Assembly: GCA_021775615.1 (NCBI GenBank)
Contig: JAJFHL010000283.1
Span: forward strand, 11,518-75,517
Direction: 5' to 3'
DNA from: Hyphomicrobiales bacterium
GTDB lineage: Bacteria; Pseudomonadota; Alphaproteobacteria; Rhizobiales; JAJFHB01
Length of the DNA: 64,000 bases
Part shown: in pieces, positions 1 through 32,436 of the stretch
How the letters are laid out: the number at the start of each line of letters is the position of its first letter
Position numbering within the stretch: position 1 is the stretch's first letter
Made by a program: the position numbers and the translations under genes
Notes under the pieces: model-generated
Databases searched by the model: none
What the model was told of the DNA's origin: nothing
The model's input: the letters and a program-made list of their open reading frames with translations, nothing else

Positions 1-33
1 CGAATCCGCAGGCCAAACCGCGAAAAGTTTGCT

Positions 34-70
34 ACAGGGGCTGTTTGAAACAGGGGGCTGTTTGAACAGG
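34..70. promoter_or_regulatory. Tandem copies of a palindromic motif (CTGTTTGAAACAG at 41-53, CTGTTTGAACAG at 58-69) upstream of the PLP-enzyme gene; candidate operator
   Basis: Direct reading: the unit acaggggctgtttga is repeated about 2.3 times. Each unit contains a CTGTT..AACAG inverted repeat. The motif sits 10-20 nt upstream of the GTG starts at 81 and 90. Confidence 0.3.
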
Positions 71-80
71 CAACGCGGGA

Positions 81-1304
81 GTGGGTTCGGTGAGCGGGAG
101 AGACAACAAGGCTATCGAGGGGGGCTTGCGTACACTGGCGGTTCATGCAGGCGAAGCGCCGGATCCGATTACCGGTGCATCGGCGCCCAACCTGGTCATG
201 TCATCCACCTTTGTCACCGAAGAGCCCGGCGGTTTTTCGGCCCACGACCTGTCTGACGACCCGGGTTTTCTCTACACCCGATGGGGCAACCCCACAGTAC
301 AGCAGCTCGAGCGCAAACTCTGTGCGCTTGAGAACGCGGAAGGCTGCCTGTGTTTCGCCACCGGAATGGCGGCGGCAAGCGGCATCCTGTTCAGCGTCCT
401 CTCCCAGGGCGATCATCTGATCGCGTCGGACACCAACTATGCGGGCGTCGCGGAGCTGATCCGCGACACCCTGCCGAGGATGGGGATCGAGATCTCCGTG
501 GTCGACACCTCCGATGTCGCCAATGTCAGCGCCGCGATCAAAGACAACACGCGGATGATCATCATCGAAACGCCGGCCAATCCGATCATGCGGCTGTGCG
601 ATATCGCCGCCATCTCGGACGCCGCCCATGCGGCGGGCGATATCAAGGTGGTGGTCGATTCGACCTTTGCAACGCCGGTGGCGACACGGCCACTCGACCT
701 TGGCGCGGACTATGTTTTCCATTCCCTGACGAAGTATATCGGCGGGCACGGCGATGCCGCCGGCGGTGCCGTGCTCGGCAGCGCCGAAGCCATCGGCGCG
801 CTTCGGCTCGAGGCCGGCATCCACTATGGCGGCGTGCTGAGCCCGTTCAATGCCTGGCTGATCATGCGTGGCTGCGCCACCCTGCCGCTGCGCATGCGCG
901 CCCATGAAGAAGGCGCCATGGAAGTGGCCCGGTTCCTCGAGGACCACCCAAAGGTCACCAGCGTCATGTATCCGGGCCTCGCGTCGCACCCCCAGCATGA
1001 GCTCGCCCAACGCCAGATGGACAACTTCTCGGCGATGCTGACGTTTCAGGTCGAAGACGGACCGGCGCTGGCCGAGCGCATGGCCAAGGACCTGCAGGTG
1101 ATTCACTATGCGGTTTCGCTTGGCCATCACCGCAGCCTGGTGTTCTGGATGGGCACGGACGACCTGATGAATACGTCTTTCCGCCTGGACGGGGCGCAGC
1201 TCGACAGCTTCAGGGCATATGCCGGCGACGGCGTGTTCCGGGTCTCGATCGGCCTCGAGGACGGGGTTGACCTGTGCGCCGATCTCGATCGCGTCCTGGG
1301 GTGA
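81..1304 (+). CDS. Cys/Met-metabolism PLP-dependent enzyme (methionine gamma-lyase / O-acyl-homoserine sulfhydrylase / cystathionine gamma-synthase family)
   Basis: 407-aa ORF. It has the PLP-lysine motif SLTKYIGGHGD, an N-terminal TLAVHAG motif, and the length typical of the trans-sulfuration family. The start may be GTG 81 or in-frame GTG 90 (GGGAG at 76-80). Confidence 0.85.
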   Translation: MGSVSGRDNKAIEGGLRTLAVHAGEAPDPITGASAPNLVMSSTFVTEEPGGFSAHDLSDDPGFLYTRWGNPTVQQLERKLCALENAEGCLCFATGMAAASGILFSVLSQGDHLIASDTNYAGVAELIRDTLPRMGIEISVVDTSDVANVSAAIKDNTRMIIIETPANPIMRLCDIAAISDAAHAAGDIKVVVDSTFATPVATRPLDLGADYVFHSLTKYIGGHGDAAGGAVLGSAEAIGALRLEAGIHYGGVLSPFNAWLIMRGCATLPLRMRAHEEGAMEVARFLEDHPKVTSVMYPGLASHPQHELAQRQMDNFSAMLTFQVEDGPALAERMAKDLQVIHYAVSLGHHRSLVFWMGTDDLMNTSFRLDGAQLDSFRAYAGDGVFRVSIGLEDGVDLCADLDRVLG

Positions 1305-22783: not shown

Positions 22784-25700
22784 ATGGCACAGATATTCAT
22801 TTCGCACTCCAGCAAGGACAATGATGCGGCCGCCCGCCTGCTCGCCTGGCTGCGTGAGCGCGGCTTCGACCAGGTGTTTCTCGACTTCGACAAGGATGCC
22901 GGCATCCAGCCGGGCGCCGACTGGGAACGCACGCTCTATGAGCAGCTTGAGCGCTGTCAGGCGGTGATTATCATCCTGACCAAGAACTGGCATGCCTCCA
23001 AATGGTGCTTTGCTGAGTATTTCGCCGCTCGGGCACAAGGCAAGGCCATCTTCCCGATTGTCGAGTCACCGACCGGCGAGATGCTGGTGGGATCGGACCT
23101 GCAGGCGATCAACTTCGTCTCCGACCGCTCCGACGGGCTGGAGCGACTGTCTGCTTCACTGAGTGAGATAGCGCTCGAGTCGGCCGCCGGATTTGAGTTG
23201 CCCGACAACGTGTCGCCATTCCCCGGTCTCAACTCTTTCGAGGAGCATCATGCCGCCGTGTTCTTCGGGCGCGATGATGTCCTGACCCAGTTGCGCGAAG
23301 TTCTGCGCAAGCGCAGCACGCAAGGCGGTGAACGACTGATTGCGTTGCTCGGTGCGTCGGGCAGCGGAAAGTCGTCACTGCTGCGGGCCGGGCTCATTCC
23401 CCGGCTTCGGCGCGACCGGGACAACTGGATCGTGCTGTCGGTGTTCAGGCCTGAATATGATCCGACCGCCAAGCTTATCGATGCCCTCCTGCAGTTGTGC
23501 GGCGATGACGAACGCATCGGCGCATGGGAAGCCGCGCTCGACGGCGGCAACCCGGAAGACGCGCTGGGCCAGATCGCACGACTTGTCCGCCGCACGTCGA
23601 AGGCACCCGATGCACGCATTCTTGTCGCCATCGACCAGGGTGAGGAGCTGTTCCTCAATCTCGACGAAAAGGCGCGGCACAGGTTCTTCGCTCTCCTCTC
23701 CAAGATGCTGGCGCTGCAACTGCCTTTTGTTGCCGTCATTGCCATGCGTTCGGAATTTCTCGACGCCCTCCAGGTCGAGAAGGGCCGTACGGTTGCCTTC
23801 GACACGTTCTCTGTCGAACCCGTTCCCCTGAGCCGCATCGGTGCGATTGTGCGCAGCCCTGCGCGCTATGCCGGCATCCGTGTCGACGATGAGCTCATTG
23901 CGGCCGTCACCCAGGATGCCGGACGGCCGGACGCCATGCCTCTTGTCGCGTTCGCGCTGCGTGAACTCTTTGACCGCTTCGGCGGCAGCGGCAGCTTTAC
24001 GCTGCGGGACTACGAAACACTTGGCCGGCGCGACAGCGGCATCACGCCTCTGGAAAATGCGGTTCGTCTCGTCGTCGAAGAGGCCTTTCCCAAAGCCAAG
24101 CGTTCAGACGAAGACGATCGCCTGCTGCGCGAGACGTTCGTCCCGGCCCTGGTGCAAGTCAACAAGGAAGGCAACTTTGCCCGTCGCTCGGCCCGGTACG
24201 CGGACCTGCCGGAGCGGGTGAGGCCCTTTGCCGACAAACTGATCGATGCCCGCCTGCTGGTTCGGCGCGGTGGTGGCGCCGGGACGGGAGAATCGATTGT
24301 CGAAGTGTCGCATGAGGCGGTGTTCAGGGTCTGGCCCGAGCTGGCCGCATGGCTCGACGAAGAGCGCGATTTTCTCGTCGGCCGCGACCGGCTGCAAGAT
24401 GCGGCGACAGACTGGGAGGAGCTTGACCGCGACGACAAGGCTCTGCTGCGTGGCGTTCTGCTGGAGCGCGCGCAGGACTGGCTGTCGAACAATCCGGACC
24501 GGTTCTCGGGCACGGAACTGGAATTCGTCCAGGCATCCATTGATCAGGACCGGGCGCAGCGGGCGCGCAAAAAACGGGCGGAACGCCGACTGTTTGCCGG
24601 TGTCGCCGCCGCGGCGGTTGTTTTTGCCATCCTGGCGGCCTGGGGCAAAATCTCGTCAGACCGGGCGATCAGGGCTGAAGCGGAAACCCAGACCCAGTTG
24701 CGTCAGACGCTTAAGAATCAGTCTTTGCATCTTGCCTCCCTGTCGGAACAGCGCAGCGACCTGGGCGATCCGGTGACGGGTGCGCTTCTGGCTCTGGCCG
24801 CCCTGCCGGGAGATGTTGACGGTTTCGCGCGCCCCTATGAGCCGAAAGCCGAGAGCGCCCTATACAGGGCGGTGCGCGAACAACGCGAAATGCGCGTCAT
24901 GAGGGGACACACGAAGCGGGTGTACACGGCAACATTCAGCCGCGATGGGCACGTCTTCGCAACCGGCTCCGGCGACCGGACAGTGCGTCTGTGGGACGCA
25001 AAAACCGGCGGGCTTCTGAAAACGTTCGAAGGTCACGGCAAGGCGATCACGTCGGTCACATTCAGCGCCGATGCGACACGGCTCTATACCGGCTCGCTTG
25101 ATGAGACAATCCGGATCTGGGACACCGCAACCGGACAGGTGATCCGAACTCTTGAAGCCCAGAGCGGCGCAAAATGCGCGGTCCGCAGCCTGGTGGTCAA
25201 CCGCGAAGAGTCCCGTATCGCGGCGGGCTGCGGCGACAGCACGATCCGGATCTGGGACATTGATACTGGTCGGCCGGTCTTCGAATTCGACAGACACAAC
25301 GGTGCGGTGACGGCTATTGCGTTTTCGCCCGACGGTGCAAATCTTGTTTCTGCGTCACGCGATGGAACGATGCTCCTGTGGGCCATCCCCGCAGGCACTG
25401 CGCTTGCGTTCGAGCCGACGCACAGAGACAGCGTCAAGTCGGTGGCTTTCTCCACCGACGGCCGGCGCGTCATTTCCGGCTCCACCGACAAGACCGCAAT
25501 CATCTGGGAGGTCGCATCGCGCGCGCCGCTTCATATTCTGGAGGGACACGAAAATGCGGTTGAAGCGGTTGCACTCGACGCGTCCGGGACCCGCGCCGTC
25601 ACCGGTTCGGTGGACCGCTCACTGCGACTTTGGAATGCGCGGACCGGTGAGGTCATTGCTGTTCTGCGCGGGCACGGCGCCGCAGTTCGCACGGTTGCAT

Positions 25701-26779
25701 TCTCGCCAACGGGCGAGCGTATCGTCTCGGGATCATCCGATTTCACAGCCAGGCTCTGGGACGCACGGCCGGCGAAACATCTCGGCGCGTTGCTGGAAGG
25801 GCATACGGACGCCGTCAATCAGGCCGACTTCAATGATGACGGCACACGCATGGTCACCGCGTCAAGAGACGGCACGGCGCGGGTCTGGAATGCGATGAAC
25901 GGCGAATTGCTGGCAACGTTCGAACACGGCGAGTTCGACGTCAAATCGGCGGCTTTCGATGCCGACGGCTCACGGATCGTCACTGGTGCGGGAGACGGCA
26001 AAGTCAGAATATGGTCACCCGGCCAGTCATCACCGCTGCTGACCACCGGGGGACAGGCCGGCCAAATCCTCTCGACCGTATTCAGCGGCGATGGGCAACG
26101 CGTTCTGGCAGGCGCCAACGACGGTACCGCGCGTGTTTGGAACGCCCGGACAGGTGCCCAGGTCCTCGTTCTCGCCGACCACGGCGATGCCGTGATGTCG
26201 GTCGCTTTCGACGCCGACAGCAACCGGATCGCCACCGGCGGTCTCGGCGGCGCGCTGCGCATTTGGAATGCCACGAGCGGCAAGATCATCCACCGTATGG
26301 ATGTCGAGGGGGCAGATGTCCGGTCCGTCTCCTTCAGCCCGGACGGGCGGTTGCTTGCCGCCGGCTTCAGCGACCAGACCGTGCGCCTGTTCGACACGGC
26401 AACCGGTGTCCCGGCGATGCCGAACCTTCTGGGACACCGGAATGAAGTAACGTCGGTGAGATTCCAGTCTGACAACAACCGTGTCGTCAGCGGATCTTCC
26501 GACGGCACCATGCGGATCTGGTCCACAACCGGACCGGACGCCGGAGAGATCCTTGAAATTCAATCGGACGAGGGCCCGGTCAGTTCCATAGCCGTAACGC
26601 GGGGCGGCGGCGGGAACATAGCGGTTGCCGCCGGGAACCTGGTTGCCGTGTGGCGCAGCTTCAAGTCGACACAGGATCTCATCGACCATGCCCGCTCGGC
26701 CCTGCCACGGTGTCCCACCCCGGACGAACGCAGAAGATACGTCATTCCGGCCGGAGCGCTTGCCTGGTGTGCGGAGTAG
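22784..26779 (+). CDS. TIR domain / STAND-type P-loop NTPase / single TM helix / 14xWD40 (two predicted 7-bladed propellers) protein
   Basis: 1331 aa. TIR-like N-terminus (IFISHSSKD ... SKWCFAEY, Glu78). FPGLNSFEE..FFGRD lead-in. Walker A GASGSGKS (nt 23351-23374). Walker B-like ILVAIDQGEE (nt 23618-23647). Basic stretch RAQRARKKRAERR, then hydrophobic LFAGVAAAAVVFAILAAW (nt 24590-24643). 14 GH..WD-type repeats span nt 24899-26656. Confidence 0.9.
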   Translation: MAQIFISHSSKDNDAAARLLAWLRERGFDQVFLDFDKDAGIQPGADWERTLYEQLERCQAVIIILTKNWHASKWCFAEYFAARAQGKAIFPIVESPTGEMLVGSDLQAINFVSDRSDGLERLSASLSEIALESAAGFELPDNVSPFPGLNSFEEHHAAVFFGRDDVLTQLREVLRKRSTQGGERLIALLGASGSGKSSLLRAGLIPRLRRDRDNWIVLSVFRPEYDPTAKLIDALLQLCGDDERIGAWEAALDGGNPEDALGQIARLVRRTSKAPDARILVAIDQGEELFLNLDEKARHRFFALLSKMLALQLPFVAVIAMRSEFLDALQVEKGRTVAFDTFSVEPVPLSRIGAIVRSPARYAGIRVDDELIAAVTQDAGRPDAMPLVAFALRELFDRFGGSGSFTLRDYETLGRRDSGITPLENAVRLVVEEAFPKAKRSDEDDRLLRETFVPALVQVNKEGNFARRSARYADLPERVRPFADKLIDARLLVRRGGGAGTGESIVEVSHEAVFRVWPELAAWLDEERDFLVGRDRLQDAATDWEELDRDDKALLRGVLLERAQDWLSNNPDRFSGTELEFVQASIDQDRAQRARKKRAERRLFAGVAAAAVVFAILAAWGKISSDRAIRAEAETQTQLRQTLKNQSLHLASLSEQRSDLGDPVTGALLALAALPGDVDGFARPYEPKAESALYRAVREQREMRVMRGHTKRVYTATFSRDGHVFATGSGDRTVRLWDAKTGGLLKTFEGHGKAITSVTFSADATRLYTGSLDETIRIWDTATGQVIRTLEAQSGAKCAVRSLVVNREESRIAAGCGDSTIRIWDIDTGRPVFEFDRHNGAVTAIAFSPDGANLVSASRDGTMLLWAIPAGTALAFEPTHRDSVKSVAFSTDGRRVISGSTDKTAIIWEVASRAPLHILEGHENAVEAVALDASGTRAVTGSVDRSLRLWNARTGEVIAVLRGHGAAVRTVAFSPTGERIVSGSSDFTARLWDARPAKHLGALLEGHTDAVNQADFNDDGTRMVTASRDGTARVWNAMNGELLATFEHGEFDVKSAAFDADGSRIVTGAGDGKVRIWSPGQSSPLLTTGGQAGQILSTVFSGDGQRVLAGANDGTARVWNARTGAQVLVLADHGDAVMSVAFDADSNRIATGGLGGALRIWNATSGKIIHRMDVEGADVRSVSFSPDGRLLAAGFSDQTVRLFDTATGVPAMPNLLGHRNEVTSVRFQSDNNRVVSGSSDGTMRIWSTTGPDAGEILEIQSDEGPVSSIAVTRGGGGNIAVAAGNLVAVWRSFKSTQDLIDHARSALPRCPTPDERRRYVIPAGALAWCAE

Positions 26780-26899
26780 CGCTTCCAGGTTTGACACCCC
26801 TCGCCTGCTGACCGTTCTTTTGCATACCAGATGGCGCGAATATCATCATATACTCGTCGCCGGACTGTGGGGTTTTGCCAGAGGGAGGCATGGCAACCA

Positions 26900-28729
26900 A
26901 TGAAATTACTGCGCGTCGCGTCACTTGTGCTCACTGCCGCAGCCTTGGCGGCGACCGCTCCGGTGCCGGGAGGCAACGGACTTTCCGGGACGCATGCCAG
27001 GGCTGCGGAAGCGATCGGAACCTGGCGGGAAAAGTCCCAGCTTGTCTGGAACGCAAAAACCCGTCAGATGGAACGCCGCATGTTGCGCGTCTGGGACACC
27101 GAAAACCGTCGCGATCAGGAATTCTCGTGGGATGCGAGCGCCGCAAGCGGGCCGCTCGAAAACGGCCCCGTCAACGGTTCGGGGACGCTGGTCTGGCGCG
27201 AGCGCGGCGCATCGTCCTATGACCGCCAGTCGATCGTCAGCACCTACAGGGGCTCGATGCAAAACGGACGGCCGCATGGCGAAGGCGCTCTCAGCACCCG
27301 CGACGGGCTCACCTATGCCGGCGAATGGCGCGACGGCATGATGCATGGTCGCGGAGAGCTCCGATACACCAACGGCGACCGCTACACCGGCCGGTTCGCC
27401 AGCGGACTGCCCCACGGCGCCGGCCGGTATGCCCGGGCAAACGGAGAGCTGTACAATGGCGAGTTTGATAACGGGCGCCGTCACGGTCTCGGCATACTGA
27501 CCTCGCCTCAGGGTGTGGTTTTTCAGACAGAGTGGGCGTACGGCAAGGAATTGCCGGCATCGGCGCGGCGACGCAATACCGAGATCGCCAACGAGCCCAC
27601 GGACCTGACCGCGCACTTGATGCCGGCTGCCAACACGGTCGATGTCGACCGGATTGAGGTTTCGGTTGTCGTCGATCAGAAGATCAGCAAGCTGTACCAG
27701 CAGGCATATGGCGGCGTCTCCTATATCCACACCCAGTCGCCCGGCGAAACGTCAATTGCCCCGGACGATCCCGAATTGATGAACCGCTGGAAGGGCGGCG
27801 GGACGATCTCCTACAGCTGGTTGAGCCAGGAGGCGCCGGCATTCATCAAATTCGTAGTGCGTAACAAAACCGGCCGATATGCCTATTTTCAATCGGCCTA
27901 TCTCCATGTCTCGGACAGTGCCACCGACATGCATCCCCTGCTCGGTCTCAACTCTCACTGGGGCTGCGTCGGCTACCGCCCGACCTTCAACATGATCAAC
28001 AATGGCTGGGGACCGGCGGAGAACTCCAAGCTCGAGTTTTCGTTTGCGCGCGATGAACTTGCCGCGCCGGCAGACACCTACCAGCACAGTCTTGACGTCG
28101 GATCCATCGATGACGGTCAGGACGTCTATGTCGAAACCGCATTGCGCGATGCCGGCGTCGACGTCGAAAAACTCAAGGCGGCGCGCTTCACCTGCCCGTC
28201 TTACGAACAGCTGCCGGGATGCGGTTCGGACATCAAGGCGAAACTGCAACTGGGATCGCTGGGTCGCCATGTGGAAGTGGTCGACAACTATGTGCGCACG
28301 ACCCTGATCGGCAAGATGCGCTATTCCTGGCGCGACAACCAGGGCGAGACGCACCAAGGCGCGTCCGTGGTCAAGACCCCAATCCTCCTGGGATTTATCG
28401 ATGTTCCAGCCTTTGCAGAGTGCTCCGATCTGCCGCCGCCCGATGTCACCCTGCCCAAAGTACCCGAGATCCGCTTCGGGCTCGACAAGCAGGATTATCG
28501 CGTGGAAGTGCCGCTGCAGGGGGTCACCAGGCTTGGCCGGGAAAACGAATACGTCGTCTCGGCGAAAGTCGACAAAGGGTCCCAGCACGAGTTCAAGCTG
28601 GTTCTTGTTTTCACCGACGGCAGCGAAAAGGTTTCGCGGCCGGTCAAGTTTCAATTCTACAAGCCCCGGCCATCGAAGTTCGAAAGCAAGGTGGAGGTGC
28701 CTGCCTGCTACATCGAGGAAACGTGCTGA
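26900..28729 (+). CDS. Secreted MORN-repeat protein with a large uncharacterised C-terminal domain (paralog A)
   Basis: MKLLRVASLVLTAAALAATA signal peptide after a GGGAGG Shine-Dalgarno sequence. About 5 MORN repeats (YxGxWxxGxxHGxG pattern: GRPHGEGA..YAGEWRDGMMHGRGEL..YTGRFASGLPHGAGRY..YNGEFDNGRRHGLG). About 400 aa of unrecognised sequence follow, ending in PACYIEETC. Confidence 0.8.
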   Translation: MKLLRVASLVLTAAALAATAPVPGGNGLSGTHARAAEAIGTWREKSQLVWNAKTRQMERRMLRVWDTENRRDQEFSWDASAASGPLENGPVNGSGTLVWRERGASSYDRQSIVSTYRGSMQNGRPHGEGALSTRDGLTYAGEWRDGMMHGRGELRYTNGDRYTGRFASGLPHGAGRYARANGELYNGEFDNGRRHGLGILTSPQGVVFQTEWAYGKELPASARRRNTEIANEPTDLTAHLMPAANTVDVDRIEVSVVVDQKISKLYQQAYGGVSYIHTQSPGETSIAPDDPELMNRWKGGGTISYSWLSQEAPAFIKFVVRNKTGRYAYFQSAYLHVSDSATDMHPLLGLNSHWGCVGYRPTFNMINNGWGPAENSKLEFSFARDELAAPADTYQHSLDVGSIDDGQDVYVETALRDAGVDVEKLKAARFTCPSYEQLPGCGSDIKAKLQLGSLGRHVEVVDNYVRTTLIGKMRYSWRDNQGETHQGASVVKTPILLGFIDVPAFAECSDLPPPDVTLPKVPEIRFGLDKQDYRVEVPLQGVTRLGRENEYVVSAKVDKGSQHEFKLVLVFTDGSEKVSRPVKFQFYKPRPSKFESKVEVPACYIEETC

Positions 28730-28820: not shown

Positions 28821-30659
28821 ATGGCCGGTCTTCTGAAATTCATGGCGACCTGTGCACTTGCCGCGACTGCCGTTGTCCTGGTCGAGCCGTTGCCACACGG
28901 CGCGGTCGCTGCGACACGCTCGCCGGTGCCCGCGGTTACCGGCATATGGAGACAAAAATCTCAGCTTGTCTGGAACCACGGTACCGGCGAGATGGAGCGC
29001 AGGCTCCTGCAGGTCTGGGACAACCAGAACCGCGCCGATCAGGAGTTCTCGTGGGACGCCGATACTGCCGGCGGACATGTGGACAACGGGCCGATTAACG
29101 GCTCGGGCCTTCTGGTGTGGAGGGAACGCGGCGCGCCGGCCTACGACAAGGCGGCAATCGTCAGCATTTATCGCGGTGTCCTCCTCAACGGCCGGCCGCA
29201 TGGCGACGGTGTGCTCACCACCCGAAAAGGGCTCGTCTATGCCGGCCGATGGCGCAATGGTGAGATGCATGGGCACGGCGATCTGCACTACGCCAACGGC
29301 GATCACTATGCGGGTGAGTTTTCGTACGGCCTGTCGCATGGAGACGGCCGTCTGGCGCAGGCCGGCGGCGAAATCTACGAAGGCCGGTTTCGCGACGGAG
29401 AGCGCCATGGGACCGGCCGCCTGACGACACCCGGCGGCGGCGTCCATCAGACCGAATGGACCTCTGGTGTCGAGCACCACCTGTCCGCCGCCAGGCGCGG
29501 CGCCGACCTTCCGGATGATGCAGGATCGGTTCCGGACAATTACGGCCTCGCAGCCGCCGGAGACATCAACCTCAACAAGCTGGCATTGTCGGTGGTGGTC
29601 GACCGGGAGGTCAGCCAAAAACAGCAGATGCGACATGGCGGAATGACCTATGTCCACCTGCATGAAGGCGGCAGTACCCGCATCATCCCGAACCAACCGC
29701 AACTCCTGAAGCGGTGGAAGGGTGACGGCACGTTGTCCTACAGCAGTGTCTACAATTTTGCCCCCGCCTATCTCAAGTTCGTGGTCCGCAACCGTACCGG
29801 CGGGAAAATCGCGGTACGAAGCGCTTATCTCGAAGTCGTCGACAGCCGCACCGACCTGCAGCCCCTGCTTGGCCTTGACAGCCACTGGGGTTGTGTCGGC
29901 TACCGGCCCACGTTCAACTTCACCAACCATGGCTGGGGGCCTGCTGAGGACGCACGGGTGGAGTTTTCGTTCGTACGCTCGTTTCAGGACGAGGCGCCGG
30001 AACAGCACAGCTACGCCCTCAATCTGGGAACATTCAAGGGCGGGCGAGACGTATCGATCGAGTCGGCGCTGAAAGCCGCCGGCGTCGACGTGCCAAAACT
30101 GAAAGCCGCGCGATACAAATGCCCTTCAGCGGAACAACTGCCGGGATGCCGGACAGACGTCATCCGAAAGCTTCAATTTGGACAACTGCAGCAGAAAGTC
30201 GAAGAAAGCGGCTTCTATCTGCGGACCAATCTGGTTGGACGGCTCAGCTATACCTGGAGGGATTCCGAGGGCGAAACGCACGAGCGTTCATCGGCGATCA
30301 AGACACCGATCCAGCTGACCGCCATCGAGCTTCCGAGCTATGCCGAATGCGGCGGCGCGGAGGACGAACTCCCGCCGGTCGCAAATGTGCCGCTGGTCCG
30401 TTTCAGCCTCGACAAAAAGAACTATCGGATCGAGGTGCCTCTGCGTGGCGGCTGGACGCTGCGCCGGCGCAGCGAGTTCACGGTTGCCGCCAGGGCGTAC
30501 AGATCATCCCTGCACCGGTTCAGGCTGGTCATCGTGCTGAAGGACGGTTCGACGAAGACGTCTCCGCCGATCGAAATGGACTTCTATCGGCCTGTGGTGA
30601 AACCGTTCAAGACATCGGTGAAGACACCTGCGTGCTACATAGTCGAGTCGAGCTGCTAA
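28821..30659 (+). CDS. Secreted MORN-repeat protein with a large uncharacterised C-terminal domain (paralog B)
   Basis: Collinear with paralog A over its full length: MORN block, HWGCVGYRPTFN, KLKAARxxCPSxEQLPGC and terminal PACYIVESSC. The N-terminus is signal-like. Confidence 0.8.
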   Translation: MAGLLKFMATCALAATAVVLVEPLPHGAVAATRSPVPAVTGIWRQKSQLVWNHGTGEMERRLLQVWDNQNRADQEFSWDADTAGGHVDNGPINGSGLLVWRERGAPAYDKAAIVSIYRGVLLNGRPHGDGVLTTRKGLVYAGRWRNGEMHGHGDLHYANGDHYAGEFSYGLSHGDGRLAQAGGEIYEGRFRDGERHGTGRLTTPGGGVHQTEWTSGVEHHLSAARRGADLPDDAGSVPDNYGLAAAGDINLNKLALSVVVDREVSQKQQMRHGGMTYVHLHEGGSTRIIPNQPQLLKRWKGDGTLSYSSVYNFAPAYLKFVVRNRTGGKIAVRSAYLEVVDSRTDLQPLLGLDSHWGCVGYRPTFNFTNHGWGPAEDARVEFSFVRSFQDEAPEQHSYALNLGTFKGGRDVSIESALKAAGVDVPKLKAARYKCPSAEQLPGCRTDVIRKLQFGQLQQKVEESGFYLRTNLVGRLSYTWRDSEGETHERSSAIKTPIQLTAIELPSYAECGGAEDELPPVANVPLVRFSLDKKNYRIEVPLRGGWTLRRRSEFTVAARAYRSSLHRFRLVIVLKDGSTKTSPPIEMDFYRPVVKPFKTSVKTPACYIVESSC

Positions 30660-30675: not shown

Positions 30676-32436
30676 TCAGTCGATCCGTGTCCGCGGTATC
30701 TCTCTCATGGCATCGTAGTAGTTCGGAATCGGGATCAACCGCGAAAAGAACGTGCCCTGATCGAAGAACCGTACTTCCAGAAGAACTCCCGACGCTGTTT
30801 CGGCCGTCTGGTCGAAGATGAAGTTGCCCAGCGAATAGACCCTCTGCGTCTGGCCGCCGGCAAGTGTCTCAATTTTCGCGCTCGCGCGGTGCGAGTGGAC
30901 GCCGATGATTGCGGAGAAGCCGCGAATGCGCAGTTCCTGTGACAGATCTTCTTCACGCGCACCGGCCTCAGTCTCCCCTTCCGCGCCCCAATGGACGAAT
31001 GCGATCAGCGGCGGCGCCTTGGACGGATCGAAGAGCCCGTCCAGAAGATCGGCGGTGATCAGGTTTCCCGCAGCCGGGCCGGCGTTGCGAAAGTCGGTGA
31101 GACCGGCGGCGCGAAATGGCCCAAGATCAACGATTTCGCCCTGTGCAAGCACGGCTATTTCGAGTTCCTCAAGCTGCGCCCGCATCTCCGCAAATGCAGT
31201 GGGTCCCATATCGCTCGTGTGATTGTTTGCCAGACTTACGGCGACCACGCCCAAACGATGCAGCCAGTTGACCGCGATGCCCGACGGCATTGTCATGGTC
31301 GAGTAGCGCATGCTCTCAGGCACTTCGTCGAGAATGACCCCTTCGAGATTGAGGACGATGGGACGGTAGCGCGTGATGTCCAGGATGTTTTCACTCACTG
31401 CAGCGGCAACTGTCCGGTCCGCCAGAAGGTAGGTCAGGTTGCGTCCGAGCAAGGTGTCGCCGGCGAAGTAGAACACCTGCTGCCCGTCGATGGTATCGAG
31501 CACCGGCGCCGCATCGGCCCCGCGCAGAAACACCTGCACCATATAGCTTGTGGTCTCGTCAATCTCGACCGTCGTGTAGCTCTGGGAGTTTGCGTTCGCA
31601 ACGACAATGAGCTCGGCGCCGAACACATCCTTCTGGAGCTTCATCTGGACATATTGCGCGCCGATCGCGTCCATGTGCTCCACCGGAAGCAGCGTCGCGA
31701 CCTCCTCCGCGGACCCGGACGAAAGCGTGTTCAGAACCTCCTGATCCCGCTGTACGGCCTTGGCCATAGGCAGAAAATGAGAGAAGTCCGTTGACTGGAC
31801 GATCAGGGTCTTTGGCGTCAGCAATGGCTTCAAACGTTCGACCAGTGCGTCCCAGTCACGCTTCTTGGCGCCCGGCGCAATCGCGACCGGAACCACCGGG
31901 ACGTTCGGAAAAAAGTGACGGATAAACGGCAGAAGCGCACGGATACCATGCTCGCGCTCGAACAGATCGGACGGCGCGATGTGTTGTCCGCCATCGACAA
32001 GCGCGTCGACCGCCTCGCCATCGACGTCGACGGGGCCAAGCACGGTCTCAAAACCGCGCCGAGTGGTGGCAATCGCCGTGTGTGCGCCTTTGAAGTGATC
32101 GGGGAGGAGCACCACGATCCGGTCATAGTCATGACCCGCCGCATACCAGAAACCCTTCGCGATCAGGTCGGAGGCCAGCAGATGATGCGGCACCGTAATG
32201 CCGGTGACAGCGGCGTCGCGATCTGCCGCGGTCCATGCATTATCCGGTTTCGCTTTGGCGATCGCATCGGTGAACTCGGCCGCAAGTTGGTAAAACTGGG
32301 GATACCGGCCCGCATCTTGGCCCAACGCAGCCCCTTCTGCCGCGGACAGCCAGAGGAGGACGGCGCCCGCTCCAAGCCCAAAGGGTCGAATGCAACGCAG
32401 GCACCAGGTCCATACTCGGTCAGACTCACCAGGCAA
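30676..32436 (-). CDS. Secreted fusion protein: MEMO1/AmmeMemoRadiSam-B-like N-domain plus CapA-family metallophosphoesterase C-domain
   Basis: Signal-like N-terminus. ITVPHHLLA, VVLLPDHF and EHGIRALLPF resemble the MEMO family. LANNHTSDMG, FVHWGAEGE and IIGVHSHRAS resemble the CapA/PGA_cap family. Confidence 0.65.
   Translation of the reverse strand: MPGESDRVWTWCLRCIRPFGLGAGAVLLWLSAAEGAALGQDAGRYPQFYQLAAEFTDAIAKAKPDNAWTAADRDAAVTGITVPHHLLASDLIAKGFWYAAGHDYDRIVVLLPDHFKGAHTAIATTRRGFETVLGPVDVDGEAVDALVDGGQHIAPSDLFEREHGIRALLPFIRHFFPNVPVVPVAIAPGAKKRDWDALVERLKPLLTPKTLIVQSTDFSHFLPMAKAVQRDQEVLNTLSSGSAEEVATLLPVEHMDAIGAQYVQMKLQKDVFGAELIVVANANSQSYTTVEIDETTSYMVQVFLRGADAAPVLDTIDGQQVFYFAGDTLLGRNLTYLLADRTVAAAVSENILDITRYRPIVLNLEGVILDEVPESMRYSTMTMPSGIAVNWLHRLGVVAVSLANNHTSDMGPTAFAEMRAQLEELEIAVLAQGEIVDLGPFRAAGLTDFRNAGPAAGNLITADLLDGLFDPSKAPPLIAFVHWGAEGETEAGAREEDLSQELRIRGFSAIIGVHSHRASAKIETLAGGQTQRVYSLGNFIFDQTAETASGVLLEVRFFDQGTFFSRLIPIPNYYDAMREIPRTRID

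Follow-up and report, generated by a model that had tools for sequence, protein, structure and literature searches.

A predicted N-in/C-out signal-anchor helix between the STAND NTPase and the WD40 propellers of a TIR-nSTAND1 protein

The question that this locus raises is on which side of the inner membrane the sensor half of a TIR-STAND protein resides. Within the window, i.e. the whole 64-kb stretch of DNA analysed, a complete ORF joins a TIR domain, a nSTAND1 NTPase and a long WD40 array (Table 1). A preliminary description had proposed, from a basic stretch followed by a hydrophobic one, that the first two modules are cytoplasmic and the WD40 part lies outside, as in a trans-envelope sensor and not a cytosolic NLR. 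To our knowledge, the STAND/NLR-like immune proteins of bacteria that have been studied all detect their trigger in the cytoplasm, the sensor directly contacting the NTPase.

The start of the ORF, MAQIFISHSS, agrees with the family consensus MARIFISHSS of the homologue alignment, and exactly the same protein sequence is present in NCBI; its best relatives in the genome collection are 44-48% identical. Over the 38 homologues aligned, TIR residues W74, C75 and E78 are invariant, the last of which we take to be the catalytic glutamate from what is known of plant and bacterial TIR NADases. The nSTAND1 profile (PF20703) is matched along positions 1-378 of 379 with 264.6 bits, compared to a cut-off of 27.1, and displays Walker A (GASGSGKSS, residues 190-198) and Walker B (DQGEE, residues 284-288) motifs, with the P-loop and D284, Q285, E287 and E288 invariant in the same alignment. 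A PDB sequence search with residues 1-720 retrieved no relatives. The AF2 model has pLDDT values above 90 across the nSTAND1 region, and its best Foldseek match in the PDB is the plant TIR-NLR RPP1 resistosome (E 1e-8), which is similar in its TIR and NB-ARC-like fold; further matches are Apaf-1, CED-4 and Avs4, and fold similarity extends to ORC/Cdc6. By its fold similarity to RPP1, Apaf-1, CED-4 and ORC/Cdc6, nSTAND1 is a candidate NTP-dependent oligomerisation switch.

Concerning the C-terminal half, Pfam alone recognises 13 WD40 stretches, and parsing of the region yields 14 blades, which are predicted to form an extracytoplasmic ligand-binding module. Tandem Repeats Finder detected no tandem repeats in the DNA of this region, thus the array is neither recently homogenised nor hypervariable. 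No Pfam model matched the stalk or linker (residues 621-704), whose cap motif GALLALAAL is also present in relatives that have no hydrophobic helix. At the DNA level, a promoter and terminator scan gave nothing above chance, and a hairpin within the codons of the hydrophobic segment was discarded because GCC/GCG Ala codons ahead of GTT GTT TTT account for it.

Table 1. Positions in the window of the features of the ORF and of the two genes directly downstream.
Feature	Position	Strand	Residues	Details
ORF, complete: TIR, nSTAND1, predicted TM helix, stalk, WD40 array, tail with Cys pair	22784..26779	+	1331 aa
TIR domain, motif SKWCFAEY	22793..23149	+	4-122	Pfam TIR_2 (PF13676), E 3.4e-21, positions 1-121/122
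nSTAND1 STAND NTPase	23216..24436	+	145-551	PF20703, E 2.8e-78
Basic cluster RAQRARKKRAERR, predicted cytoplasmic juxtamembrane stretch	24551..24589	+	590-602
Predicted single transmembrane signal-anchor helix LFAGVAAAAVVFAILAAW	24590..24643	+	603-620	18 uncharged hydrophobic residues
Post-membrane helical stalk/linker	24644..24895	+	621-704	AF2 helix to residue 660
WD40 array of 14 blades, predicted to form two 7-bladed propellers	24896..26653	+	705-1290	Pfam WD40 (PF00400), 13 stretches, E 2.3e-121
Cys798, WD40 blade 3	25175-25177	+	798
Cys816, WD40 blade 3	25229-25231	+	816
C-terminal tail, family motif R.LT..E...Y/F-like PRCPTPDERRRY	26654..26776	+	1291-1331	Pair Cys1310/Cys1329
Two paralogous signal-peptide MORN-repeat proteins, directly downstream	26831-28729 and 28821-30659	+

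The translation of 24530-24700 reads ...QDRAQRARKKRAERR-LFAGVAAAAVVFAILAAW-GKISSDRAIR..., and so the basic stretch and the 18-residue hydrophobic segment after it (24590-24643, residues 603-620) are present as first described. The segment contains the highest Kyte-Doolittle 19-residue window of the protein (2.26); the runner-up, residues 301-319 (1.99), falls in the NTPase core, and the view that this is the only hydrophobic segment stands, residues 603-620 being the sole hydrophobic-helix candidate for membrane spanning. The N-terminus (MAQIFISHSSKDND) is polar and carries no signal peptide. The segment had also been placed exactly between the two modules; it does lie between them, but abuts neither, with nSTAND1 ending in Pfam at residue 551, about 50 residues of helix on the N-side, a helical linker of about 85 residues on the C-side and the WD40 blades starting near residue 705. 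On the Hessa 2005 scale, taken as simple sums with no length or position terms, the segment scores -0.61 kcal/mol, the next best stretch +3.44 and the family median about -0.1 to 0. For an Ala-rich helix a sum of -0.6 kcal/mol makes insertion energetically marginal by that measure. In the AF2 model the segment lies inside one continuous helix (residues 576-660), along which pLDDT drops in the stalk towards residue 660.

Whether such a segment is a chance feature of one protein can be judged from the family, which is large: 18,893 representatives of a library clustered at 50% identity or less match the ORF protein at E <= 1e-3. An uncharged segment of 19-25 residues occurs at the same position in about 80-90% of approximately 370 homologues from at least 6 phyla (Proteobacteria, Actinobacteria, Cyanobacteria, Chloroflexi, Planctomycetes, Acidobacteria and others). 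An equivalent segment was found in 146 of 179 homologues in a first sample and in 103 of 114 cluster representatives (50% identity or less) in a second one, about half of whose representatives also belong to the first; its recurrence at the same position shows that chance does not account for it. Across phyla the segment keeps its position, its length (median 21) and its hydrophobicity, and the sequence itself is variable. The homologues keep the basic-hydrophobic pattern that the preliminary description wished to see compared, and, as far as sequence prediction goes, the TM segment is a hallmark of the nSTAND1 family, most members of which have it.

The flanking charges indicate an orientation. 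In the ORF protein the 15 positions before the segment contain 8 Lys and Arg residues and the 15 after it contain 3, and the family means per 15-residue flank are 5.45 and 2.54, respectively. The N-flank is the richer in 135 of 141 homologues and the poorer in only 2 (Wilcoxon p = 4e-24; this and the p-value for cysteine parity below overstate independence due to the relatedness of the sequences). Trp and Tyr are enriched at the C-terminal end of the segment (68 of 141, compared to 24 of 141 at the N-terminal end).

The first competing explanation is a soluble, cytosolic NLR-like protein, in which the hydrophobic stretch is a coiled-coil or buried helix used for oligomerisation or cap packing and never enters the membrane. 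The Ala-rich composition with its marginal predicted insertion energy, the single long helix of the AF2 model and the existence of relatives that have this linker and WD40 array and function with no helix would all fit, and the characterised bacterial STAND defence proteins that we know of are all cytosolic. A buried or coiled-coil helix would, however, be expected to conserve its heptad or packing positions and to be fixed in length, whereas the segment is free in sequence, ranges from 17 to 27 residues and contains about 0.7% Asp, Glu, Lys and Arg over more than 140 homologues. Neither does a soluble protein explain the 135:2 charge asymmetry, nor the cysteine bias confined to the downstream domain and the fusions to cytochrome c1 and PG_binding_1 domains that are described below. 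We therefore consider it unlikely.

Further information on the fate of the post-helix domain comes from its cysteines. Their number is even in 110 proteins and odd in 16 in the first sample, and clustering at 60% identity leaves 45 even-majority clusters vs 7. The second sample gives 79 even and 24 odd (p = 5e-8), and its counts follow a saw-tooth (21 proteins with none, 13 with one, 30 with two, 8 with three, 16 with four, 3 with five and 10 with six). The NTPase part of the homologues displays little or no such bias, the corresponding numbers for this region in the second-sample proteins being 59 and 44. An even-Cys bias is a published signature of exported proteins, seen in 49 of 52 proteomes of aerobic Alphaproteobacteria and 31 of 31 of Actinobacteria (PMC2823432). 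Parity and not density was used as evidence, as density disagrees between samples: per 100 residues after the helix, helix-containing and helix-less proteins have 0.64 and 0.69 cysteines in the first sample, where some borderline helices are misclassified, and 0.41 and 1.07 in the second (n=11 helix-less).

The tail presents a more specific picture. Exactly two cysteines occur in the last 60 residues of 36 out of 45 helix-containing WD40 homologues, the ORF protein included, in several spacings, among them C-x8-C and CxxC. In the helix-less homologues, which here and elsewhere form small control groups of about 9-11 sequences, there is no tail cysteine in 9 of 9, although the same tail motif is recognised in 8 of the 9, from Actinobacteria and Chloroflexi. 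All four post-helix cysteines of the ORF protein (798, 816, 1310 and 1329) are kept in P0123, an orthologue of 67% identity whose WD40 region is the most divergent part (54-57% identity, vs 93% for the TIR). Several helix-containing relatives nearest in tail type have no post-helix cysteine at all; they are compatible with export, yet provide no evidence for it.

Domain fusions point in the same direction. P0100 and P0103 have one helix followed by TPR/Sel1 and then PG_binding_1, and P0077 has three helices followed by a full cytochrome c1 with its CSACH haem motif; the occurrence of these periplasm-only domains after the helix or helices favours N-in/C-out export in the predicted architectures. 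In P0062 the WD40 part follows three helices whose second loop is strongly basic. The "caspase" Pfam labels on some post-helix regions were not used, as these regions match no more than the C-terminal third of the profile. Loss of the helix is also precise: in P0001, the nearest database homologue in the first search, the hydrophobic segment is exactly deleted with the linker still alignable and the WD40 array kept, and a Streptomyces/Nocardiopsis/Micromonospora clade has likewise lost the helix and retained linker and WD40. The WD40 module is thus evidently able to work in the cytoplasm.

Taking these data together, we assign a probability of about 0.7 to the segment being a genuine single-pass type II signal-anchor with N-in/C-out topology. 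The even-Cys bias, the absence of the tail pair in helix-less relatives, the retention of all four post-helix cysteines in P0123 and the periplasmic-domain fusions support export of the post-helix domain, and, added to the conservation of the segment and the 135:2 charge asymmetry, they back as a prediction the initial assignment of TIR and NTPase to the cytoplasm and WD40 to the outside.

The preliminary description had itself offered a second alternative, in which the helix is a membrane tether or an oligomerisation element. As a tether only, it would lie in-plane or re-entrant at the inner membrane, with the WD40 part kept in the cytoplasm, where it could for example watch DNA-entry sites; localisation to the membrane with no export would have the merit of keeping the classic sensor-NTPase autoinhibition. 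An uninterrupted uncharged helix of 18-25 residues with no central Pro/Gly turn is, however, too short for a hairpin and insufficiently amphipathic for in-plane binding, and neither the cysteine parity nor the periplasm-only fusion partners would be explained. A single spanning helix cannot keep both large domains cytoplasmic, so that this alternative, taken alone, looks quite unlikely. The Ala/Gly-rich composition does allow a spanning helix to contribute to oligomerisation as well. Very unlikely as a replacement for the signal-anchor is a latent membrane-disrupting effector, whose helices would be bundled into a pore by NTPase-driven oligomerisation like other abortive-infection membrane effectors: the Ala/Gly/Ser-rich composition suits helix-helix packing and some members have three or four helices with nothing downstream (P0094; "nSTAND1+TM+TM+TM+TM"), but with its TIR domain the protein has an effector already, the helix co-occurs with many different N-terminal effectors and precedes large, sensor-typical repeat domains, and pore formation is in any case compatible with N-in/C-out topology.

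With the signal-anchor as the preferred reading, membrane insertion, the disulfides, a ligand and signalling across the membrane, all of which we infer, could combine in the following way. The TIR effector, of NADase type, and the ATPase switch formed by nSTAND1 would remain on the cytoplasmic side, which supplies NAD+ and ATP. The Arg/Lys cluster would lie on the cytoplasmic surface of the inner membrane, and the Ala/Gly-rich helix would span this membrane and run on as a stalk of roughly 40 residues. Both propellers would be exported via Sec, and two disulfides, C798-C816 and C1310-C1329, would stabilise the WD40 part. The periplasmic propellers may recognise a ligand on the envelope side, for instance a protein of a phage or competitor or a neighbouring secreted protein, and the resulting clustering or reorientation of the membrane helices would lead the cytoplasmic NTPase domains to oligomerise, which would bring the TIR domains together as an active enzyme that consumes NAD+ or produces a signal. 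In characterised STAND proteins, autoinhibition relies on the sensor touching the NTPase directly; the membrane would bar this contact, and another activation mode must be assumed.

The nSTAND1 conflict-system NTPases were described by Kaur, Iyer, Burroughs and Aravind 2021, eLife (PMC8195603), and the ORF protein is like them in its full-length match, N-terminal effector and C-terminal repeats. Their supplementary source data already include the architecture "TIR+nSTAND1+TM+BetaPropeller", and count "nSTAND1+TM" 412 times and "nSTAND1+TM+BetaPropeller" 278 times; the main text mentions neither the TM nor its topological consequence (PMC8195603). The cysteine parity and the periplasm-only fusions are the additional evidence given here. 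A literature search for experimental studies of nSTAND1 family members found none, and a search for an explicitly periplasmic STAND/WD40 sensor returned only the architecture strings of that supplement and the paper by Dore et al. 2024 on the DGR-diversified STAND sensors of Thiohalocapsa PB-PSB1, some of which (NACHT + C-type lectin) are predicted to be periplasmic and others, nSTAND1 targets among them, cytoplasmic (PMC10907252). A predicted periplasmic STAND-linked sensor is thus common to the NACHT proteins of that organism and the ORF protein, but the former use a CLec/FGE fold with retroelement diversification and the latter a WD40 fold (PMC10907252).

Like Avs1-4, bNACHT and RPP1, the ORF protein is built of three parts, an effector, a STAND NTPase and a sensor made of repeats; Avs, bNACHT and RPP1 are soluble with the sensor touching the NTPase, whereas here a membrane helix is predicted between them. 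PADLOC yielded no match to an Avs or NLR model at E <= 0.01, the models matched being generic TIR-like (ThsB, SAVED-TIR) and repeat (HEAT-ARM_XIII) ones only. The suggestion that the layout is unusual for TIR-STAND proteins is right in relation to the characterised cytosolic Avs, bNACHT and plant and animal NLRs, but does not apply within nSTAND1, of which it is the majority state. Signal-anchors of N-in/C-out orientation are known from PknB/PknD-type Ser/Thr kinases and from ToxR/CadC, in which the anchor connects a catalytic or DNA-binding domain, folded in the cytoplasm, to a sensor outside it, and PknD also bears a beta-propeller; the ORF protein differs in its output module, TIR plus STAND ATPase, and in a far longer cytoplasmic part of 600 residues. 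Animal Toll-like receptors share the predicted layout, with a repeat ligand domain outside, a single membrane helix and TIR inside, and ligand-induced association would be the most economical activation model for both. Order and orientation are nevertheless opposite (type I LRR-TM-TIR vs type II TIR-NTPase-TM-WD40), Toll-like receptors have no NTPase, their TIR domains serve as scaffolds, those of bacteria being typically NADases, and the whole proteins are not homologous.

Extending the topology to the whole family, we place somewhat better than even odds on nSTAND1 proteins being trans-envelope, NLR/TLR-like receptors instead of cytosolic NLRs, with disulfide-stapled repeat sensors outside and a single helix that passes the signal to an ATPase and to effectors (TIR, caspase or other) in the cytoplasm. 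Precise deletion of the helix, repeated several times and accompanied by loss of the Cys pair, would then have produced the helix-less cytosolic paralogues, and in the lineage of the ORF the WD40 part may work with the adjacent secreted MORN and Memo/PGA_cap proteins. If the sensors are truly exposed, in the periplasm or at the cell surface, they would constitute a very large, unexplored class of bacterial receptors, in which threats or kin and competitor cues are detected before or without cytoplasmic entry, the STAND switch can be activated across a membrane by a mechanism beyond the accepted autoinhibition model, and the layout parallels that of Toll-like receptors, repeats outside and TIR inside. 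Proteins with helix and Cys pair and helix-less ones with no pair make up a paired natural experiment, which renders the topology directly testable.

The neighbourhood bears on export and on possible partners. The host is a diderm, with AcrB and HlyD-type efflux genes in the window, and the genes adjoining the ORF encode signal-peptide proteins, both of which favour the signal-anchor reading. The MORN proteins are possible periplasmic partners of the WD40 protein. A tblastn search with both of them against family loci L001-L081 gave a single generic MORN match, which indicates that MORN genes are not partners of the family generally and would be so in the ORF's own lineage only. Within two other loci (L082 and L085) the gene order TIR-nSTAND1-WD40, MORN, Memo/PGA_cap is kept, and in a third (L083) MORN and Memo/PGA_cap adjoin a signal-peptide WD40-caspase protein.

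The protein encoded by the single long ORF in the table clearly belongs to the nSTAND1 family as delimited by Kaur et al. 2021 (PMC8195603). Its Walker A (GASGSGKSS) and Walker B (DQGEE) motifs, as well as the TIR motif SKWCFAEY with E78, are intact and invariant among homologues, and manual parsing yields 14 WD40 blades, which suffices for two seven-bladed propellers. The linker (aa 552-705) and the 41-residue tail match no Pfam model. AlphaFold2, run on aa 1-720 (mean pLDDT 84), predicts aa 576-660 as one unbroken helix that takes in a basic cluster, then the hydrophobic segment, then a stalk beyond the membrane. Among PDB structures the model best resembles the resistosome of the plant TIR-NLR RPP1, with ORC/Cdc6, CED-4, Apaf-1 and Avs4 next in rank; no sequence-level relative was found in the PDB, and PADLOC returned only generic TIR and repeat matches, with no other defence-system model.

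Features of the TIR-nSTAND1-WD40 protein and its downstream neighbours (nucleotide positions are those of the window)
Feature	Nucleotides	Residues	Strand	Remarks
TIR-nSTAND1-WD40 ORF	22784-26779	1331 aa	+	single long ORF
TIR_2 domain		4-122		Pfam E 3.4e-21
nSTAND1 (PF20703)		145-551		Pfam E 2.8e-78, full profile
Uncharged 18-residue segment	24590-24643	603-620	+	from translation
WD40 stretches (n=13)		from ~705		Pfam
MORN-repeat protein 1	26831-28729		+	signal peptide, six Cys in mature part
MORN-repeat protein 2	28821-30659		+	signal peptide, six Cys in mature part
Memo/PGA_cap gene	30676-32436		-	convergent, past MORN genes

The TIR and ATPase domains need the NAD+ and ATP of the cytoplasm, and a single spanning helix places the two halves of a protein on opposite sides of the membrane; therefore, the topology question reduces to whether the segment really inserts. 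Translation of 24530-24700 gives QDRAQRARKKRAERR-LFAGVAAAAVVFAILAAW-GKISSDRAIR, with eight K/R in the 15 residues before the segment vs three in the 15 after it. The segment is the top 19-residue Kyte-Doolittle window of the protein (2.26), the second being aa 301-319 in the NTPase core (1.99), and the preliminary description of a basic stretch preceding an 18-residue hydrophobic one is accurate to the nucleotide. On the Hessa 2005 scale it scores -0.61 kcal/mol and the next best stretch +3.44, as simple sums with position and length terms left aside. Its codons also hold a terminator-like GC hairpin with a T-run (24601-24627, + strand; GTCGCCGCCGCGGCGGTTGTTTTTGCC); the regional count of such sites is within shuffle expectation, so the hairpin most likely reflects nothing more than the Ala and Val/Phe codons.

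The pattern is a property of the family. A search with aa 130-720 gave 120 best homologues, all TIR-nSTAND1 proteins, most of which carry an uncharged segment of 17-27 residues near aa 600, whatever follows it: WD40, TPR, Sel1, Sel1 with PG_binding_1, or extra helices. In a survey taking one genome per species, 66 of 80 nSTAND1 loci (from Actinobacteria, Cyanobacteria, Chloroflexi, Planctomycetes, Proteobacteria, Acidobacteria and others) show it 86-145 residues past the conserved HEAL motif, typically with ~700 aa downstream. It occurs in 146 of 179 pooled proteins, with a median length of 21 and a composition of 27% A, 19% L, 15% V and 10% G, D/E/K/R making up ~0.7%. K+R are richer in the N-terminal flank in 135 cases and in the C-terminal one in 2, and the basic-hydrophobic pattern, whose conservation the preliminary description had proposed to check, is conserved; W/Y are enriched at the C-terminal end of the segment (68/141 vs 24/141 at the N-terminal end). 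When 1.84 billion cluster representatives at <=50% identity were searched with HMMER, profile-free, 18,893 matched at E <= 1e-3. Of the best 150, 114 were scorable, roughly half of them shared with the pooled sample, and 103 of the 114 carry the segment. Free sequence, variable length, absence of charges and a one-sided basic cluster form the pattern of a membrane anchor; a packed or coiled-coil helix would look different.

In aerobic Proteobacteria and Actinobacteria, exported proteins are biased towards even Cys numbers because their cysteines pair in disulfides, a bias that Daniels et al. 2010 (PMC2823432) saw in 49/52 alphaproteobacterial and 31/31 actinobacterial proteomes. In helix-containing homologues the Cys count past the helix is even in 110 and odd in 16; when NTPase domains are grouped at 60% identity, even counts prevail in 45 clusters and odd ones in 7, whereas helix-less clusters split 3 to 5, bearing in mind that the sequences are related, hence not independent, and that the helix-less control groups are small. 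The HMMER sample gives 79 even vs 24 odd (p = 5e-8) in a saw-toothed distribution (0:21, 1:13, 2:30, 3:8, 4:16, 5:3, 6:10, 8:2), and the NTPase region of the same proteins 59 vs 44. To our knowledge, this parity contrast between helix-containing and helix-less relatives is new evidence. Past the helix the window protein has four Cys, C798 close to C816 and C1310 close to C1329, and all of them are kept in P0123, its 67%-identical orthologue, where the sequence local to them differs. Judging from general WD40 geometry, C798 would start strand A and C816 end strand B of blade 3, neighbouring positions in canonical blades. Several helix-containing relatives with the tail type nearest to this one have zero Cys past the helix, which is compatible with export but uninformative.

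Fusions provide topology markers. In the homologues P0100 and P0103 a single helix is followed by TPR/Sel1, which holds exactly two Cys, and then by a peptidoglycan-binding domain above the Pfam cut-off; P0077 (Rhizobium leguminosarum, 964 aa) follows TIR-nSTAND1 with three predicted helices and a complete cytochrome c1 (Pfam E 2.7e-59, CSACH haem motif at 738, C-terminal anchor); and P0062 has three helices, the second loop extremely basic, before its WD40 region. In these arrangements the first helix must run N-in to C-out. P0077 is also an odd effector/sensor combination with a built-in topology marker. Pfam labels post-helix regions of P0006, P0007, P0014, P0028 and other TIR-nSTAND1 homologues Peptidase_C14; in P0006, the sole one rescanned, aa 635-709 match caspase profile positions 151-229, its last third only, so these matches may be spurious or may reflect a degenerate caspase-like domain lying outside the membrane.

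Several independent indirect tests thus say that the segment inserts, and we predict a type II signal-anchor protein with a probability of about 0.7. The layout first proposed, TIR/NTPase inside and WD40 outside, is well supported, if indirectly, by helix conservation, charge bias, Cys parity and fusions. Against export, the helix is Ala-rich and marginal on a simple insertion scale (family median ~0); moreover, known STAND proteins are held inactive through sensor-NTPase contact, and a membrane between the two demands another activation mode. A soluble coiled-coil helix is an improbable alternative, and a tether on the cytoplasmic face slightly more so; neither accounts for the cysteine signature or for fusion partners that are periplasm-only. 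A latent pore-forming helix, which fails on the same two points, is very unlikely. In the signal-anchor reading, TIR and nSTAND1 would lie on the cytoplasmic side with the basic cluster at the inner leaflet, the Ala/Gly-rich helix would extend into a stalk, and two disulfide-stapled propellers would stand in the periplasm. Binding of an outside ligand might then cluster or reorient the helices, whereupon the NTPase domains might oligomerise, bringing the TIR domains together as an active NADase or signal generator.

The architecture is already on record, since the supplementary source data of Kaur et al. 2021 (PMC8195603) contain 'nSTAND1+TM' 412 times, 'nSTAND1+TM+BetaPropeller' 278 times and also 'TIR+nSTAND1+TM+BetaPropeller'; the helix is absent from the main text, and in the literature searched we found no paper discussing or testing its topological meaning. 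Dore et al. 2024 (PMC10907252) predicted that some other STAND-linked proteins have their sensor domains in the periplasm, but called their own nSTAND1 examples cytoplasmic, unlike the layout predicted here. The functional layout is like that of Toll-like receptors, whose repeats lie outside and TIR inside, and like that of single-pass sensors of the PknD or ToxR type, but the protein is homologous to neither.

WD40-type members, including most WD40 homologues among the loci examined, end in a tail motif past the last blade, (…aR…gR.LT..E(W/R)..Y/F…), kept across phyla and lacking a Pfam model (26654-26776, aa 1291-1331 here). Exactly two Cys lie in the last 60 residues of 36 of 45 helix-containing WD40 members, the window protein counted, a pair flanking the motif at varying spacings (C-x24/25-C, C-x8-C, CxxC, C-x18/20-C). 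Nine helix-less homologues have none in the tail and 1-7 scattered in the propellers, and eight of them (from Nocardiopsis, Streptomyces, Micromonospora and a Caldilineaceae genome) keep the same motif, as does a likewise Cys-free Dehalococcoidia protein outside the WD40 tally. The segment is precisely lost in L016, L019, L021, L028, L031, L039, L043 (Nocardiopsis, Streptomyces, Micromonospora), L058, L010 and P0001; these nSTAND1-WD40 lineages keep the linker and a tail motif ARxRVFRxLTxEERxxHLL and lose the tail Cys pair, with 1-7 scattered Cys. In P0001, the closest homologue in the first search, only the hydrophobic stretch is cleanly deleted and both flanks are alignable, and a whole actinobacterial clade has no helix; the linker-WD40 module therefore evidently works in the cytoplasm too, a point against export.

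With AcrB/HlyD-type efflux genes, DAHP synthase and transporters, the window is a stretch of ordinary diderm chromosome and not a defence island. Directly downstream lie two paralogous MORN proteins (51% identical), and two related metagenomic contigs, L082 and L085, share the order TIR-nSTAND1-WD40, MORN, Memo/PGA_cap. In distant genomes too, MORN is paired with Memo/PGA_cap, mostly behind one or two trypsin-like genes, and these genes, seen across the loci L082, L083 and L085-L088, may form an uncharacterised periplasmic protease/repeat module. In L083 the pair adjoins a WD40-Peptidase_C14 protein bearing a classical signal peptide, which shows that such bacteria export canonical WD40 propellers, and lies beside a DUF4760 protein and another caspase. 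These neighbours hint at a periplasmic partnership with the window protein, a lead only, because MORN genes were not found as general neighbours of the family in loci L001-L081. The syntenic orthologue P0123 (L082, 6047-10033) is 93% identical in TIR, 75% in the NTPase and 54-57% in the propellers, a gradient that fits a fast-evolving sensor on a conserved effector.
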